NCBI GenBank assembly: GCA_040752125.1
Contig: JBFMFK010000003.1
Coordinates: 19,034 to 83,033, forward strand
Direction: 5' to 3'
DNA: 64,000 bases
From: Patescibacteria group bacterium
GTDB taxonomy: Bacteria > Patescibacteriota > Minisyncoccia > UBA9983
The notes under the pieces are model-generated. The model saw only the letters and a list, made by a program, of their open reading frames with translations, was not told where the DNA came from and did no database searches. Positions within the stretch are counted from its first letter, which is position 1. The number at the start of each line of letters is the position of its first letter. The translations under genes were made by a program, and so were the position numbers. Shown piece by piece: positions 2,747 through 18,400 of the stretch.

Positions 2747-3937
2747 ATGGGTCTTTTTAGGAAAAACAAAAGTAAAAAGGAGCTTATCGCAATTATTGAT
2801 ATCTCCAGTGCCTCGGTGGGGGGAATGTTGTTGGAGAAAAGCCAGGGATCAAGAGAGATTATCTCTTCGGCGAGATATCCGATAAATTTCCTATTTGATA
2901 TAGATTTTCAGGCACATTGGAGATCTACAACAACTTCTATTAATAGGGTTTTAAGTGAGTTAACAAAGAATTATCAAAAAAGACCCGATAAGATTCTCTG
3001 CGTCTTTTCTCTTTTATGGGGTGTGAGCCAGACGAGGATAATTAAAGTGAGGAAAGAGCAATCATTTAAAGTAAAGAAAAATTTCTTGGACAAATTGATA
3101 AATGATGAAGTTAAAATTTTCAAAAGCCAATGGCAAAATAAGACGCCATCTCTCAAGGAAAGTTCTGAACTTATAGAAAGCGAAGCGATGAAAGTTGCCT
3201 TGAACGGATATTTTTTGCAGGATCCCGATGATAAACACGCGAAGACAATAGATATGTACGTTTATATGAGCTTGATTTTAAAAGAAGTGAGAGACAAAAC
3301 AAGAGAATTATTATCAAGATACCTTGGCGAAACTACGGTTTATTTTCACACTCTTCCCTATGTCATTTTTATTTTTTTAAGGGATGAATTAAATATCTCT
3401 GACAGGTTTATGTTTTTGGAAATAGGCGGTGAGACATCAGAATTATCCACAATAAAAGATGGCATTCTGGAAGAAACCATTTCCTTTCCCAAAGGGAGAA
3501 ATTTCTTGATAAGGAAAATAGCTACTGAATTAAAAACTTTTATAGATGATGCAGAATCGAATTTAAAAAGTTTCAGAGAAAAACATATCTCCAATCATCT
3601 CAGTGCAGGGATTGAAAAAATAATTGATGATAATAAAAAAAATTGGTATGAATATTTTTACAGAATATTCAGTGATCTTTCTCAAGATTGCCCCTTGCCT
3701 CGAGACATATTTGTTCTTGGTGATAAAACGATTACTCCAGAGATAATAGATTTTTTGAAAGATGATTCTTTTTCAAAATTTACCACCCTGGGAAAGCCCC
3801 TAGAAGTCAAGGAGATATCAGCGGAGGACTTAAGTCATTATTTCAAATTTAGAGGAAGTTTCGATAAAGATAAAGATTTGTTTTTGATGATTGAAAGTTT
3901 TTTTGCAGACAGATTTTTAAATTACAATATAAAATAA
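2747..3937 (+). CDS. hypothetical protein, possibly actin-like (ASKHA) ATPase fold (FtsA/PilM-like)
   Basis: The N-terminal IAIIDISSASVGG and the later FLEIGGETSELSTI resemble the phosphate-1 and phosphate-2 motifs of the actin/FtsA/PilM family. The match is weak. Confidence 0.35.
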   Translation: MGLFRKNKSKKELIAIIDISSASVGGMLLEKSQGSREIISSARYPINFLFDIDFQAHWRSTTTSINRVLSELTKNYQKRPDKILCVFSLLWGVSQTRIIKVRKEQSFKVKKNFLDKLINDEVKIFKSQWQNKTPSLKESSELIESEAMKVALNGYFLQDPDDKHAKTIDMYVYMSLILKEVRDKTRELLSRYLGETTVYFHTLPYVIFIFLRDELNISDRFMFLEIGGETSELSTIKDGILEETISFPKGRNFLIRKIATELKTFIDDAESNLKSFREKHISNHLSAGIEKIIDDNKKNWYEYFYRIFSDLSQDCPLPRDIFVLGDKTITPEIIDFLKDDSFSKFTTLGKPLEVKEISAEDLSHYFKFRGSFDKDKDLFLMIESFFADRFLNYNIK

Positions 3938-13020: not shown

Positions 13021-13030
13021 GTATTAGCAA

Positions 13031-13363
13031 TGTATTAAGGGAAGGCATATCGAAAAACCAATCAAAAAATTTTCAATAAATAAAAAAGAAGCAGAGCAGA
13101 TTAAAAATATAATCAAAAGACATATTAATCTGAGAGATTATAAAATTTTTATTTTCGGATCGCGAGCAAAGGGCAGAGCTCGAAAATTTTCTGATTATGA
13201 TGTAGGAATTATAGGTAAGAAAGAAGTGCCTAGCGAGAAAATGATTTTGATTGAAGAAGAATTTGAAAATTCAGATTTGCCATATAGTGTTGAAGTAATA
13301 GATTTTGCTATGGTGAGTGATGATTTTAAAAAAATTGCTTTAAAGAAAATTAAAAAACTATGA
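13031..13363 (+). pseudogene. minimal nucleotidyltransferase (MNT, HI0073-like) with an in-frame TAA at codon 3 after the only ATG (otherwise intact 107-codon reading frame; may use a non-AUG start)
   Basis: The frame carries GSRAKGRARKFSDYDVGI (GSx9-11SDxD NTase motif), followed by EVIDFAM. It reads ATG TAT TAA GGG AAG..., and there is no ATG, GTG or TTG between the TAA and the NTase motif. The ORF is absent from the supplied ORF track for that reason. Confidence 0.55.
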
Positions 13364-13374
13364 GCTAAAACCAA

Positions 13375-13755
13375 ATGAAGAAAGAGAGAAAAGACACACT
13401 AATTGAAAAGTTTGAAGAAGCCTTTCAGAGATTGGAAGAAGCAATTAAAGAACGGCCGACTCAAATGAACAAAGATGCAACTATCCAACGTTTTGAATTT
13501 ACTTTTGAATTAAGTTGGAAAGCGGCGCAAGCATTTTTGAAAGATCAAGGCATTGTTTGTAAAAGTCCGCGAGATTGTTTCAGAAAGTCTGCTGATTATG
13601 GTCTGATTAAAAGTCCAACACCCTGGTTTGATTTTTTAAAAGCAAGAAATAATATTGCGCATACCTATAACCAAAAGATGGCAGATAGGATTTATAAAAA
13701 AGCAATTAAATTTCCAAATTTCGCTGAAAAACTTTTAAAAAATTTAAAAGAATAA
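13375..13755 (+). CDS. HEPN-domain nucleotidyltransferase substrate-binding protein (HI0074 family), partner of the upstream MNT
   Basis: IQRFEFTFELSWKA and the R-x4-H motif ARNNIAHTY are present. It follows the MNT gene after 11 nt. Confidence 0.7.
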   Translation: MKKERKDTLIEKFEEAFQRLEEAIKERPTQMNKDATIQRFEFTFELSWKAAQAFLKDQGIVCKSPRDCFRKSADYGLIKSPTPWFDFLKARNNIAHTYNQKMADRIYKKAIKFPNFAEKLLKNLKE

Positions 13756-13765
13756 CTTAACAAAC

Positions 13766-13860
13766 ATAAAAAAGTTTTTCAAAAATATTATAATAAATAA
13801 AAAATCCGAAATCCGAAATCCTAAACAAATTTCAATGAATCAAATCCCAAATTCAAATTA
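13766..13860. repeat. ~95-nt leader repeat R1 (AAAAAGTTTTTCAAAAATATTATAATAAA...AAATCCGAAATCCGAAATCCTAAACAAATTTCAATGAATCAAATCC), duplicated at 14521..14611
   Basis: The two copies are about 90% identical, each placed directly upstream of an operon start. Each contains a TATAAT and a triple AAATCCN direct repeat. Confidence 0.85.
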
Positions 13861-13867
13861 AAAACAT

Positions 13868-14098
13868 ATGATAACAAAAATCCCATTGAAATCTTATAAA
13901 AAACAAATCTCTTTGAAACGTTTCTCGGGGAAATGGGTAGCTTTTATTAATGATAAAGTTATTGCCTGGGCAGATAACCTTCAAGATTTAGAGAGAAAGA
14001 TAAAAAAGATAAGACCCAAAAAGGAACCAGTTTATTTTTTGGTACCAAGAAAAGATGAAGGGCCCTATATTTTGTTTCCCATACATTTTCCACAATAA
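13868..14098 (+). CDS. small hypothetical protein, DUF5678-like (GKWVAF..DKVIAWADNLQDLERKIKK)
   Basis: The ORF is 76 aa. Its pattern resembles the DUF5678 family that I recall from archaea and thermophiles. The assignment is from memory, not from a search. Confidence 0.4.
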   Translation: MITKIPLKSYKKQISLKRFSGKWVAFINDKVIAWADNLQDLERKIKKIRPKKEPVYFLVPRKDEGPYILFPIHFPQ

Positions 14099-14114
14099 TT
14101 CAATATGAAAAAAC

Positions 14115-14504
14115 ATGGAAAAAGAATTTAATTATTCACAAAAAGATAATAAATGGTATCCAACTATTGATGTAATTCTTCAAGGTCATGTGCGAGGGCG
14201 AGCCTTTAGGGCTTTAGTTGATTCTGGGGCTTCTATTTCAATATTTCGAGGAGAAGTTGCTGATTATTTAGGAATTCTTTTAGAAAAAGGAAAGCCGACG
14301 TATTTAACCGGAGTTGGTGGAAGAATTTTAGGTTACTTACATAAAATTCCTGTAGAAATTGAAAATAAAAAATTTAATTGTAAAATCATTTTTTCACGAG
14401 AATATACAGTTTCTTTTAATATTTTAGGTCGTGATAACTTTTTCTTGCCGTTTTTAATCACTTTTAACGAGAAGATGAGAAAATTAAAAATTATTGATTA
14501 TTAA
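14115..14504 (+). CDS. retropepsin-like aspartic protease (clan AA, single-domain, presumably homodimeric)
   Basis: The canonical active-site motif is present as ALVDSGASISIF (hydrophobic-hydrophobic-D-S/T-G-A), followed by a GVGG flap-like segment. Length is 129 aa. Confidence 0.6.
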   Translation: MEKEFNYSQKDNKWYPTIDVILQGHVRGRAFRALVDSGASISIFRGEVADYLGILLEKGKPTYLTGVGGRILGYLHKIPVEIENKKFNCKIIFSREYTVSFNILGRDNFFLPFLITFNEKMRKLKIIDY

Positions 14505-14520
14505 TTATGAGATGAGAAAA

Positions 14521-14611
14521 TATAAAAAAGTTTTTCAAAAATATTATAATAAAAAATCCTAAATCCTAAATCCTAAACAAATTTCAATGAATCAAATCCT
14601 AAAATCCAAAC
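14521..14611. repeat. leader repeat R2 (copy of R1)
   Basis: See R1. Confidence 0.85.
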
Positions 14612-14614
14612 AAT

Positions 14615-14740
14615 ATGAGAATTAAAATTTGCAAAAAATATTTGGCAATAATTACAATCGTTGTTCTTCTTTTGGGAATGATGCCGGCAAAAGAAGTTGA
14701 GGCGGCCACTTTTAGCAGGATGTTAATTAAAAATTTTTAA
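14615..14740 (+). CDS. 41-aa signal-peptide-like mini-ORF duplicating the N-terminus of the giant surface protein (…KEVEAATFS…), translationally coupled (TAATG) to the MNT gene
   Basis: MRIKICKKYLAIITIVVLLLGMMPAKEVEAATFSRMLIKNF can be compared with MRKFEKFLKKTLSIILLVILVSSALFANPQTVEAATFNW of the 15443 gene. At nucleotide level, gttgaggcggcCacttttaG aligns with gttgaggcggcGacttttaA. Confidence 0.3.
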   Translation: MRIKICKKYLAIITIVVLLLGMMPAKEVEAATFSRMLIKNF

Positions 14741-15087
14741 TGAATTATTCCATGGGTACCAAAATTGAAATTAAAAATTTACCAAAAGAGTTGAGGAAGA
14801 AAAGAATAGAAGAAAAATTAGCAGAAATTTGTGAACGCGAGGCCATAATCCTTATGTCTGTCTTTGGTTCTTTTGTTAAGGGACAGCAAAGAAAAAAAAG
14901 CGACATTGATATGGCAATTGAGTTTGCTAAAAATAGTGGAAAAAGCCTTTTGGATTTAGTTCGGATAGAAAATGAATTGACAAAAATATTTAAAAGAAAA
15001 GTAGACCTCGGGATTTTCAGCAGCCTAAATCCTTACATAATTCAAGATGTAAAAAAAGAAATGCAAACAATTTATGAAAAAAGATAA
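14740..15087 (+). CDS. minimal nucleotidyltransferase MntA-like (antitoxin of HepT/MntA type VII TA pair)
   Basis: The NTase motif FGSFVKGQQRKKSDIDMAI is present. The gene overlaps the downstream HepT by 14 nt. Confidence 0.75.
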   Translation: MNYSMGTKIEIKNLPKELRKKRIEEKLAEICEREAIILMSVFGSFVKGQQRKKSDIDMAIEFAKNSGKSLLDLVRIENELTKIFKRKVDLGIFSSLNPYIIQDVKKEMQTIYEKR

Positions 15088-15412
15088 GGCCTATTTAAAG
15101 CATATTTTAGATGCAATAGCCGATATAAAGAAATTTACAGAAGATATCTCAGAAGAAAAGTTTTATGAAGATAAAGAAAAACAGTATGCTGCCTTGAGGG
15201 GGCTTGAGATAATTGGCGAGGCAACAAAGAATCTTAGTAGGGAGTTAAGAGCAAAGAATCCTGAGATTCCCTGGAAAGATATTGCAGGTATGAGAGATAA
15301 GTTAATTCATGAATATTTTGGTGTCAATCTGGAATTAGTTTGGGAAACTATTAAAGATAGACTTCCTAAACTTAAAAAACAAATTTCTGAAATATTAAGT
15401 AACCTTAAATAA
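15074..15412 (+). CDS. HepT-like HEPN toxin (DUF86)
   Basis: It carries the R-x4-HxY motif MRDKLIHEYFGV and has the typical size of 112 aa. Confidence 0.75.
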   Translation: MKKDKAYLKHILDAIADIKKFTEDISEEKFYEDKEKQYAALRGLEIIGEATKNLSRELRAKNPEIPWKDIAGMRDKLIHEYFGVNLELVWETIKDRLPKLKKQISEILSNLK

Positions 15413-15442: not shown

Positions 15443-18400
15443 ATGAGAAAATTTGAAAAATTTTTAAAGAAAACTTTATCAATAATCCTTTTGGTTATTT
15501 TGGTTAGTAGTGCTCTTTTTGCAAATCCCCAAACTGTTGAGGCGGCGACTTTTAATTGGACGCAGAGTAATTGGTCTGGCGGGGCTTCTGCCAACACTGC
15601 TTCTCATCCTACCAATCAAACCGGCTGGAGTTATTATGCTTCAAAAGATGCTAATTTATCCGCTGGAGCGAGCAGCTTAACTCTCTCCACTATTGCTTCT
15701 TCCACCACCCAAACCACGAATGCTGATTTTAATTCGGGAGCAACTTCAACAACGCAGGTGAGTAATAATAGTGTGGTGTTGGCAGTAGAAACGCCGGGAG
15801 CTTCTTGTGAAAGTAGCATTACTGTTAACCACACTGCCGGCGCAATATCGCCAATTACCACAAGTATTACTTATGGAACGGTAATTACTAATCTTACAGG
15901 ATCTAATAAATGCTGGATAACCCAAAACCTTGGTGCTTCCCAACAGGCAAGTTCAGCTACTGATAATACCGATGCCTCTGCTGGCTGGTATTGGCAATTT
16001 AACCGCAAGCAGGGGTATGCAGTTGGGCCAACACCTGCCTGGACAATTACATCCATTGATGAATCTAGCGACTGGACTTCAGCTAATGACCCCTGCACCA
16101 TAGAGCTGGGCACCGGTTGGCGCTTGCCTACTTATACTGAATGGGCTAATGCTGATGGAGGATGGGCTAACTATAACGATACATACGCTTCTGTGTTAAA
16201 ACTCCATGCTGCTGGCGGCCTCTTCGCCAGCAGTGGCGGCCTGTACGGCAGAGGCGCGACCGGCCTCTACTGGAGCAGTACTCAGTACATTAGCACCCTC
16301 GGCTACTACCTGATCTTCGACAGCAGCAGCAGCAACATGGGCAGCGACAACAATAAGGCGTCTGGGTTTTCGGTGCGCTGCCTTACAGATAATATTTTAG
16401 GCTACTACTCCTCTGGCACTTTTACTTCTAATGTGATTAATCTTGGAACAAATGTAAATTGGGGCAATCTTTCCTGGACTGAAACAGGAACAGGCACGAT
16501 AACTATGAAAGCTCGGTCTTGTGATGACAGCGCTTGTTCTGGTGAAGCAGCTTTCACAAGTTGTTCTAATATCACTAATGGCGCGGCTTTATCAACTGGT
16601 AATTGTGTAACTAATGGTCATCAATATATTCAATATCAAACTGCGCTCTCAACTTCAGATATCTCATTTACACCTTCTTTAGATGACGTGACTATTGGAT
16701 ATAATTATTATCCTTCTTCTCAAAATCTAACTTCATCTAAATACGATTCCTCATCTGACGGCAATGTTATTGGCGGCCTGGCTTGGGATGAGGATGCGAC
16801 TCTTACTTCTGGAACGAGTGTAACCCTGTCACTTCGCACTGCTTCAAGCACAGTTAATCTTGATTCTGCCTCTTGGAGCGATTTTACCAATGCCACAGCA
16901 AATTGTTCTAAAGCAGGGACAAGAGTAACTTGCACCTCTTCAGCCATTCCTTCTTCTATGAAAGACGGCTCTGGCGACCAGTGGCAGCAATATAAAGTTA
17001 CTCTGACTTCTACTGGTGCTAACAAACCCACTGTAACATCTGTCATTCTCACTTATGTGGTTAATGCTCGGCCGGAGTTTGATGTGCCTAATACCACTGC
17101 TTCCCAAATCTCTGATTCCGGCAGTGCTAACTGGGGCAAGGTGCAGATAACTTATCCTATTAAAGACATTGATACTACTTCTGGTTCTATTACTCCCGGA
17201 TATGTCACTCCTTCTTTTGAATATAATACTGGCTCTGGCTGGACAACCATTACCTCTGGTTATTTGAATTCCGGAGCTTTAGACAATAAAGCGGTGCAGG
17301 AAGGAAGCTATACATCGCACACTGCTTATTGGGACGCCAAAACGCAGATCCCTAGCACTTATACAACGACCGGCCAGATACGTATCACTATAAATGATAA
17401 TGAGGGCGCCAATAATTCCACCAGCACTACCATTTCCAATATTACCATTGACACTACGAATCCAACTTTATCAGCTTTTACCCTTGACTCGTCCGCGGAT
17501 ACTTTAACGATTTCTGCTTCTGATAATTCTAATCTCCAATATCTAATTTCTAATAACCAAGACGGCTCGGCTGATGGCTCTAATGCTATTTCCAGCTCTT
17601 GGCAAACAGTAGGAGGAACTTCTACCAGTACTACCCGCGCCTGGGCATATTCTCCGGACTCCACTGGTTATGAATCAGTTACTATTGCCTACAGAGATAT
17701 TTACGGAAACACTGCCACTACCACAGATATAGCGCCTTATCAGCCCAAGAACTTTTACTATAAAGATATCTGCAATACTGCTATCAATGACTGGAGAGAA
17801 TTTCTTTCTTGGGGAGTGTATACTGCCACCACCACTTCTTCTTGGGCTAATTACAAAGTTTATCGGTCCACAGATGGAACGACTTATTCTTTGCTTGGCA
17901 CTTTAAGCAGTGACGTTAATACCAATTACTATATTGATTCTTCTGTAGCTTCAACTACTACTTATTATTATAAAGTTTTAATCACTGATTCTGACGGAGA
18001 TATTTCATCTTTCACAGACCCGGTGTCCGATCTGCCCAATGGCCAGGGCGGTTCTGACTCTACCGCTCCCTTAATCACTTCCGGCCCTACTGTGACAGAA
18101 ACCAAATCAACCTGGGCAAGCATTGTCTGGACAACAGACGAGATTTCCAATTCAGTGGTGGAATACGGCTTGACAACTAGCTACGGCTTAACCAGCACGG
18201 TAAACACTATGGTTACTTCTCATTCTGTAACTTTAACCGGGCTCACTCCCAACACCACTTATTATTTTCGGGTTAAATCAACAGATATTGCCTCTAACAC
18301 GGTCACATCAAGCGGCTCGTCATTTGTCACCACTCAAGGACCGATTATCTCTTCTGTCACAGCAGAGAGCGTGACTGACAATACCGCTTCTATTGTCTGG

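Follow-up and report, generated by a model that had tools for sequence, protein, structure and literature searches.

What kind of system is formed by two small adjacent genes, one encoding a DUF5678 protein and the other a retropepsin-like aspartic protease, in the genome of a Patescibacteria group bacterium? The pair lies at positions 13868-14504 of the stretch of DNA analyzed here (the window, 64,000 nucleotides of contig JBFMFK010000003.1, to which all coordinates refer unless a locus number is given). A sequence-only reading had proposed either a toxin-antitoxin (TA) or abortive-infection-like module or a protease with its cognate inhibitor or substrate, options that are consistent with the comparative evidence gathered here. 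We found that the two genes form a cassette that is self-contained and about 0.65-1 kb long, and that this module is mobile, patchily distributed, and inserted at sites differing between genomes. The interpretation that we favor, with a probability of roughly 0.45, is a type II TA-like cassette in which the C-terminal tail of DUF5678 would restrain the protease.

Both genes lie on the + strand. The first (13868-14098, ATG start) encodes a 76-residue DUF5678 protein with a Lys-rich N-terminus, a ββαβ core, and a C-terminal tail, while the second (14115-14504, ATG start) encodes a single-domain retropepsin-like aspartic protease of 129 residues. Exactly 16 nt (14099-14114) separate the DUF5678 stop from the retropepsin ATG. 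This two-gene layout had been described correctly, as the open reading frame (ORF) positions agree and the peptide strings quoted at the time are found in the translations. Proteins 100% identical to both translations are present at NCBI, from a Patescibacteria metagenome-assembled genome (MAG), under the names "retropepsin-like aspartic protease" and "DUF5678 domain-containing protein."

The sequence-only reading had made the retropepsin identity depend on a hidden Markov model match to a D-S/T-G-A family. The 129-residue protein scored above the curated gathering cut-offs of four clan-AA families in Pfam, namely, PF13650 Asp_protease_2 (33.5 bits for a cut-off of 24.3), PF13975 gag-asp_proteas (31.0 for 28.2), the Ddi1-type PF09668 Asp_protease (28.7 for 26), and PF00077 RVP (24.6 for 20.7). 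The ALVDSGAS active site recognized earlier corresponds to residues 33-40, with D36 encoded at 14220-14222, and displays the catalytic hydrophobic-hydrophobic-D-[ST]-G-A pattern of clan AA (L34-V-D36-S-G-A39). At least 406 homologues were found, and conservation was assessed in an alignment of 46 of them sharing 54-73% identity with the window protein. The catalytic motif D36-S-G-A39 (14220-14231, + strand) showed no variation in this alignment and aligns to DTGA of feline immunodeficiency virus (FIV) protease. The flap T65-G-V-G-G-R70 (14307-14324, + strand), in which G66 and G69 are invariant and G68 and R70 nearly so, aligns to GIGG of the same enzyme, and the retropepsin "GRD/N" helix cap L104-G-R-D-N108 (14424-14438, + strand; L104, G105, R106, and N108 invariant) aligns to its LLGRDN. 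A profile of the family searched against the PDB matched FIV protease (E=1e-5) as well as the yeast and human Ddi1 RVP structures (1e-4), the three motifs corresponding residue for residue. The AlphaFold2 model (predicted local distance difference test score [pLDDT] 88) adopts the one-lobe retropepsin beta-barrel (Foldseek template modeling [TM] scores 0.73/0.71), with matches to HIV-1/2 protease (E about 5e-6, probability 1.00) and, over the full length, to Rickettsia APRc (5c9f; probability 1.00, TM 0.73). Scores for the prokaryotic clan-AA subfamilies TIGR02281 and TIGR03698 fell below the NCBIfam cut-offs (17.5 versus 57.95 and 15.3 versus 57.35 bits, respectively), and neither a signal peptide nor a membrane segment was found in the sequence as read. 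By its sequence motifs and predicted fold, the window protease is a member of clan AA, apparently a cytoplasmic and catalytically intact one-lobe retropepsin whose activity is predicted. As each 129-residue chain contributes a single catalytic Asp, a dimer is implied; judging from the family, the protein would have to dimerize to be active.

Lack of conserved pairing in other genomes had been named as the observation that would undermine a two-gene module. We surveyed the pair from both sides. Starting from DUF5678, a search of 185,579 species-representative genomes yielded 32 loci, 26 of which carried an intact retropepsin gene directly downstream on the same strand. The protease was truncated or frameshifted at three others (L016, L024, and the first pair of L038) and absent from the remaining three (L015, L029, and L041, the last with a DUF5678 gene that is itself truncated). 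Starting from the protease, 80 metagenome loci were retrieved, of which 73 had enough upstream sequence, and an intact DUF5678 gene was located directly upstream in all 73, counting as intact the DUF5678 of L082, which contains an insertion and retains its tail. No intact protease devoid of DUF5678 was therefore found among the 73 informative loci, while decayed proteases beside intact DUF5678 genes do occur. This asymmetry of decay (5/31 versus 1/73; Fisher's test, p=0.009), in which the second fraction becomes 0/73 once L082 is read as intact, is the pattern that would be predicted for a protease with harmful effects when alone.

The pairing extends to distant branches of DUF5678, where the next gene was again a retropepsin, even without a Pfam match on record, and where several proteases were truncated or split. 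Protease motifs in these branches include DSGC...LLGREDFF (L129), DTGS (the archaeal L127), and DSGA plus DTGA (L125). Furthermore, the two genes overlap by 4 nt in 66 of 103 pairs. Neither 150 DUF5678 representatives nor the 120 best matches to a fused query included a DUF5678-retropepsin fusion; the long proteins among the 150 consist of tandem DUF5678 repeats with helical N-terminal regions and no visible protease. Two loci, L038 (2962-4062) and L125 (2501-3530), contain tandem arrays of two pairs belonging to different subfamilies, in which the first L038 protease and both L125 proteases are truncated and the DUF5678 genes are intact. At L127/L128 (2699-3152), on an archaeal contig that also bears fibrillarin and Nop genes, the retropepsin located 3' of a divergent DUF5678 gene is split into two overlapping ORFs, a DTGS half and an ILG half, in two independent assemblies, which could represent a shared frameshift or pseudogene, or recoding.

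The 76-residue protein had been assigned to DUF5678, and this assignment proved correct, with a PF18929 match of 46.3 bits (E=3.8e-12; cut-off 23.2) covering positions 3-49 of the 49-position model. When 1.84 billion representative proteins were searched with a DUF5678 profile, the search returned 417 clusters, nearly all of 55-90 residues. The structural model (pLDDT 74) contains a ββαβ core at residues about 21-58 (GKWVAF...), followed by a tail modeled as low-confidence coil and predicted to be intrinsically disordered. No relative of the core fold, Gag-like or otherwise, was found in the PDB, and no ubiquitin-like structural match was obtained for the model. Homologues share the GKWVA segment and a C-terminal L-V-P-R-K-D-E-G-P-Y-[IV]-L motif. 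In the window, the codons of this almost invariant tail, L58-V-P-R-K-D-E-G-P-Y-I-L69 (LVPRKDEGPYIL), occupy 14039-14074 on the + strand. Residues L58-G65 are invariant in 62 homologues with 39-68% identity to the window protein, and P66, Y67, and L69 are nearly so. In a wider survey of 81 unique pairs, only P60 and P66 never change, and entropy does not exceed 1.1 bits at positions 58-67. The C-terminus VP-x-x-[DE]-E-x-x-x-[IV]-L is kept by most of 147 DUF5678 sequences, including distant members. The motif occurs in 53 distinct nucleotide versions that make use of all synonymous codons, which places the constraint on the tail peptide rather than on a ribosome-binding site or an RNA signal. 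Across the 81 unique pairs, phylogeny and near-invariant columns dominated the mutual information between DUF5678 and protease columns; a single lineage with the tail VPAAREEPHLII also carries an altered flap, GIKGR.

A higher-GC branch of DUF5678 proteins (P0264, P0292, P0320, and P0326; about 250 residues) contains two DUF5678 domains, with a helical region ahead of each and a sub-threshold TPR_14 match in P0264 only. No retropepsin was visible near these two-domain proteins on the single short contig looked at (L123), and the same was true of P0297 (L124), a two-domain protein of 128 residues without the helical regions. DUF5678 may have a protease-independent role in the higher-GC two-domain branch.

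The pair had also been credited with its own copy of a duplicated leader, and two such copies indeed bracket it. The upstream copy (13766-13847, + strand) spans 82 nt, with a perfect TATAAT at 13789-13794 and three AAATCC[GT] units, and the downstream copy (14522-14599, + strand) lies just before the next ATG (14615). The copies are 93% identical, with no such match in 100 shuffles, and their start-to-start spacing of 756/752 nt equals the pair plus one copy of the repeat. The leader belongs to no Rfam family, and a scan for sigma-70 consensus promoters found sites no more frequent than in shuffled sequence. We then compared the 400 nt located 5' of DUF5678 with the 400 nt located 3' of the protease at 55 non-redundant loci. 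Direct repeats of 28-120 nt with 84-100% identity surrounded the pair at 13 of them (the window, L023, L025/L081, L026, L028, L051, L078, L087, L089, L107, L111, and L112), with a spacing of about 740-1010 nt. Controls in which the interval was shifted by ±1300 or ±1800 nt showed a repeat in only 3 of 165 cases, cross-locus controls showed none, and no inverted repeat of at least 25 nt bracketed the pair at any of the 55 loci. The repeats consist of local host sequence, which varies from one locus to the next. Examples are, in the window and L023, a promoter-like leader containing TATAAT, in L025/L081, a terminator hairpin after the elongation factor gene EF-G, and in L111/L026, what reads as the 3' coding end of an upstream gene. 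The repeats are not a shared attachment (att) site, and no recombinase was found inside the brackets. The brackets read as long, variable target duplications or, alternatively, as what remains after a small circle, bearing the pair and a fragment of host DNA, has integrated through a single crossover. The leader duplication of the window is one of these 13 brackets, a putative insertion scar. At L014, an (AAAACAAT)n octamer array stands 5' of the pair (2757-2851), and a short copy of the octamer unit follows the protease stop (3460-3500).

The pair was found in many Patescibacteria classes, Omnitrophota, Melainabacteria ("Obscuribacterium"), Acidobacteriota (Vicinamibacterales), a gammaproteobacterial and a deltaproteobacterial MAG, and DPANN archaea (Aenigmatarchaeota and Nanoarchaeia), with two copies in one MAG (L017 and L018). 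Among the 145 genes next to the pairs, 131 Pfam families are represented, and no third gene is conserved. The commonest of these families are ParE toxin (4), 23S-rRNA-IVP (3), and IS200 transposase (3), HicB is also present, and the remaining genes are housekeeping (EF-G, Clp, trigger factor, L32, etc.). The defense-gene neighborhood proposed by the sequence-only reading therefore holds for this window, where MNT/HEPN pairs lie on both sides, but not for the module at large, whose neighbors are mostly housekeeping genes with a few ParE, IS200, and HicB genes. In the deltaproteobacterial MAG (L133-L137), a tight co-oriented run comprises two RuvC-like genes, DUF5678, the retropepsin, and a bPH_2 protein gene; it adjoins two tyrosine integrases and an HTH_3/MqsA-like gene, placing the pair within an integrase-flanked island and possibly in a larger mobile-element context. 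A search of PHROGs gave no meaningful match, and the pair matches no PADLOC system. A search of the full-text literature returned no description of the DUF5678-retropepsin pairing. The term "DUF5678" appeared only in one unrelated plant paper, and nothing was returned for "retropepsin-like" with "toxin-antitoxin," for PF13650 with "antitoxin," or for "PDC-M08."

In its organization, the cassette resembles type II TA systems such as ParDE, HicAB, and MNT/HepT. It consists of adjacent, co-oriented small genes, usually overlapping by 4 nt, whose upstream product is small and partly disordered, and the co-oriented pair is conserved across unrelated contexts. It is also mobile, patchy, and sometimes multi-copy, it occasionally has TA neighbors, and an orphan "antitoxin" can persist beside a decayed "toxin." It departs from these systems in that an aspartic protease is unknown as a TA toxin and DUF5678 has no DNA-binding fold typical of antitoxins, which would serve autoregulation.

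HIV-1 protease offers a second parallel, being a dimeric-type retropepsin with the same DxGA, GxGG flap, and GRD/N motifs. The polypeptide encoded directly 5' of the protease in HIV (transframe/p6*) includes short acidic peptides, which keep the enzyme in check until their cleavage, and this is the logic proposed here for the DUF5678 tail. Unlike in HIV-1, the two products are separate polypeptides with no frameshift fusion and no retroelement context, and DUF5678 shows no sequence relationship to Gag or p6*. Ddi1 is similar in that PF09668 scores above its cut-off and a small alpha/beta domain precedes the Ddi1 protease domain. However, Ddi1 joins ubiquitin-like (UBL), RVP, and ubiquitin-associated (UBA) domains in one chain, whereas the window protein is a protease domain alone, without UBL or UBA, and DUF5678 is a separate protein.

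The sequence-only reading had described bacterial retropepsins as functionally uncharacterized apart from a few cases, a statement that is now out of date given APRc, RimB, and RloA, none of which has a DUF5678 partner. All three are prokaryotic single-domain clan-AA enzymes like the window protease, and APRc is its best full-length structural match. Rickettsia APRc is membrane-anchored. RimB, from the Pseudomonas rimABK operon, and RloA of P. aeruginosa target acidic tails rich in Glu and cooperate with partners from their operons; RloA is secreted, and RimB belongs to another operon than the one considered here.

The favored interpretation can be spelled out as follows. A free retropepsin dimer would be the harmful effector, cutting cellular proteins. 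DUF5678, translated first and in step with the protease, would bind and restrain it, most likely through the disordered, near-invariant C-terminal tail (VP-R-K-D-E-G-P-Y-I-L). The tail could fill the substrate cleft, acting as a pseudo-substrate or as a mimic of the product; alternatively, it could obstruct the terminal beta-sheet by which the dimer is held together. The protease would then be released once DUF5678 is lost or turned over (after cassette loss, under stress, or possibly upon infection). The cassette itself would insert by means of host functions, leaving direct duplications of 28-120 nt of its target, of which the window leader would be an example. A more ambitious version, which we regard as doubtful, would make the pair a new class of selfish addiction or defense cassette whose dimeric aspartic protease effector is held off by a DUF5678 pseudo-substrate tail. 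Such a cassette would be the free-living prokaryotic counterpart of retroviral upstream-peptide restraint, spreading among the candidate phyla radiation (CPR), Omnitrophota, and DPANN without a recombinase of its own, moving as a unit of about 0.75-1 kb and duplicating 30-120 nt of its target.

Several points weigh against the TA-like interpretation. Contact between DUF5678 and the retropepsin is postulated, and so is the toxicity of a free-standing retropepsin. DUF5678 has no recognizable DNA-binding domain (helix-turn-helix [HTH], ribbon-helix-helix [RHH], AbrB, or Phd) of the kinds common in type II antitoxins. The asymmetry of decay rests on small numbers from two differently sampled collections. 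A consistent defense island is absent across the 145 flanking genes, and searches of IMG/VR viral contigs, GenBank phages, and PLSDB plasmids yielded no homologues. PADLOC-DB 2.0 gives only a sub-threshold PDC-M08B candidate match for the protease (18.3 bits, E=4e-4) and none for DUF5678. Finally, the invariant tail fits a cleavage site equally well.

This last point leads to a maturation pair, in which the retropepsin would cut or trim the DUF5678 tail to switch DUF5678 on or off, the processed DUF5678 being the functional product. SpoIIGA and pro-sigma-E, an aspartic protease encoded in one operon beside the protein on which it acts, provide the model for such an arrangement. SpoIIGA itself differs, being a multi-pass membrane protein of divergent fold, with the gene order reversed and no sequence relationship to either protein here. 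The invariance of the tail is what a specific cleavage site would predict, and beyond the tail come 0-10 variable residues, hydrophobic for the most part, that such processing could remove. Moreover, an acidic D-E or E-E is always present in the tail, and there are precedents in RimB, which trims a C-terminal poly-Glu tail, and RloA, which cuts Glu-rich sequences. Nevertheless, many members stop exactly at ...PY[IV]L, leaving nothing to remove, and orphan DUF5678 genes outlive decay of the protease, which would be odd if their function required processing. The patchy, mobile, and multi-copy distribution also indicates no host pathway in need of the product, and we consider a maturation pair unlikely. 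Persistence of DUF5678 while the protease decays also speaks against DUF5678 being an obligate activator, adaptor, or assembly factor (for folding, dimerization, or targeting) of a non-toxic accessory protease, together forming a regulated-proteolysis module useful to ultra-small symbionts. No protease was found without DUF5678, as such a role would require, the 4-nt overlap of most pairs has the geometry of translational coupling, and, according to the RimB paper, the rare characterized bacterial A2-family peptidases involve other proteins in activating the protease or joining a catabolic cascade. However, obligate enzyme-cofactor pairs are often fused somewhere and no fusion was found here, while the insertion scars and highly variable context indicate a selfish cassette rather than a host pathway, and we judge an activator role to be rather less probable still.

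A dedicated anti-phage abortive infection system, in which DUF5678 would sense a phage product and free the protease to kill the cell or cut a phage protein, differs from the TA-like cassette by its trigger only. The two MNT/HEPN pairs flanking the window pair, the weak PADLOC similarity to PDC-M08B, and the copy in an integrase-flanked island beside an MqsA/HTH_3-like gene are in line with such a function. We nonetheless find it improbable, given that neighbors across loci are mostly housekeeping genes, that DUF5678 has no PADLOC match, and that no homologues, which might have hinted at an arms race, were found on phage or viral contigs. Finally, the protease is of retroviral type and at most loci is read in the -1 frame of the gene before it, which it overlaps by 4 nt; this could recall a retroelement relic (a gag-pro remnant) or a programmed-frameshift fusion as in retroviruses. 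Neither a reverse transcriptase nor an integrase is linked to the pair, the open stretch of the protease frame 5' of its ATG measures only about 8 codons, and DUF5678 has no Gag-like or other fold relative in the PDB. Above all, the frame relation varies between loci, being +1 in the window with its 16-nt gap and -1 at loci with the 4-nt overlap, which makes this origin extremely improbable and led us to reject the retrovirus-like fusion.

What we infer is therefore a TA-like cassette with an unprecedented class of effector and an uncharacterized partner. If true, aspartic proteases would join the effector chemistries of TA and conflict systems, so far mainly nucleases, kinases, nucleotidyltransferases, and pore formers, and DUF5678 would gain its first functional context. 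With 76 and 129 residues, the pair would also provide a very small natural system for retropepsin inhibition in trans, bearing on the origin of the regulation of retroviral and Ddi1-type proteases. The module occurs mainly in CPR, DPANN, and Omnitrophota, whose members have tiny genomes and are not growable alone, and a cassette testable in E. coli would offer a rare experimental handle on them. The direct-repeat brackets are, for their part, a concrete trace of the insertion of a two-gene module without a recombinase, a process that is poorly understood for TA modules generally.

The flanking genes of the window are as the sequence-only reading had described them, the pair sitting between two MNT/HEPN pairs, with the reservation that the upstream MNT lacks a canonical start. 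Upstream, an NTase_sub_bind/HEPN gene (13375-13755), identified by Pfam, is preceded on its 5' side by an MNT-like ORF (about 13022-13363) whose full-length frame is open (GSRAKG...SDYDV). This frame contains no ATG, GTG, or TTG until its final 45 codons; either a non-canonical start would be used or the start has been lost. Downstream, Pfam identified an MNT gene (14740-15087) and a HepT gene (15074-15412). A 41-residue ORF following the second leader copy (14615-14740; MRIKICKKYLAIITIVVLLLGMMPAKEVEAATF...) resembles the signal-peptide region of a 1630-residue surface protein that starts at 15443 (MRKFEKFLKKTLSIILLVILVSSALFANPQTVEAATF...; resembling region 15443-15560), and the MNT/HepT pair (14740-15412) lies between this ORF and the surface protein gene. 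Because of this resemblance and of the position of the pair between the two, we suggest that the MNT/HepT pair was likewise inserted with a target duplication, in this case of the 5' end of the large surface-protein gene.

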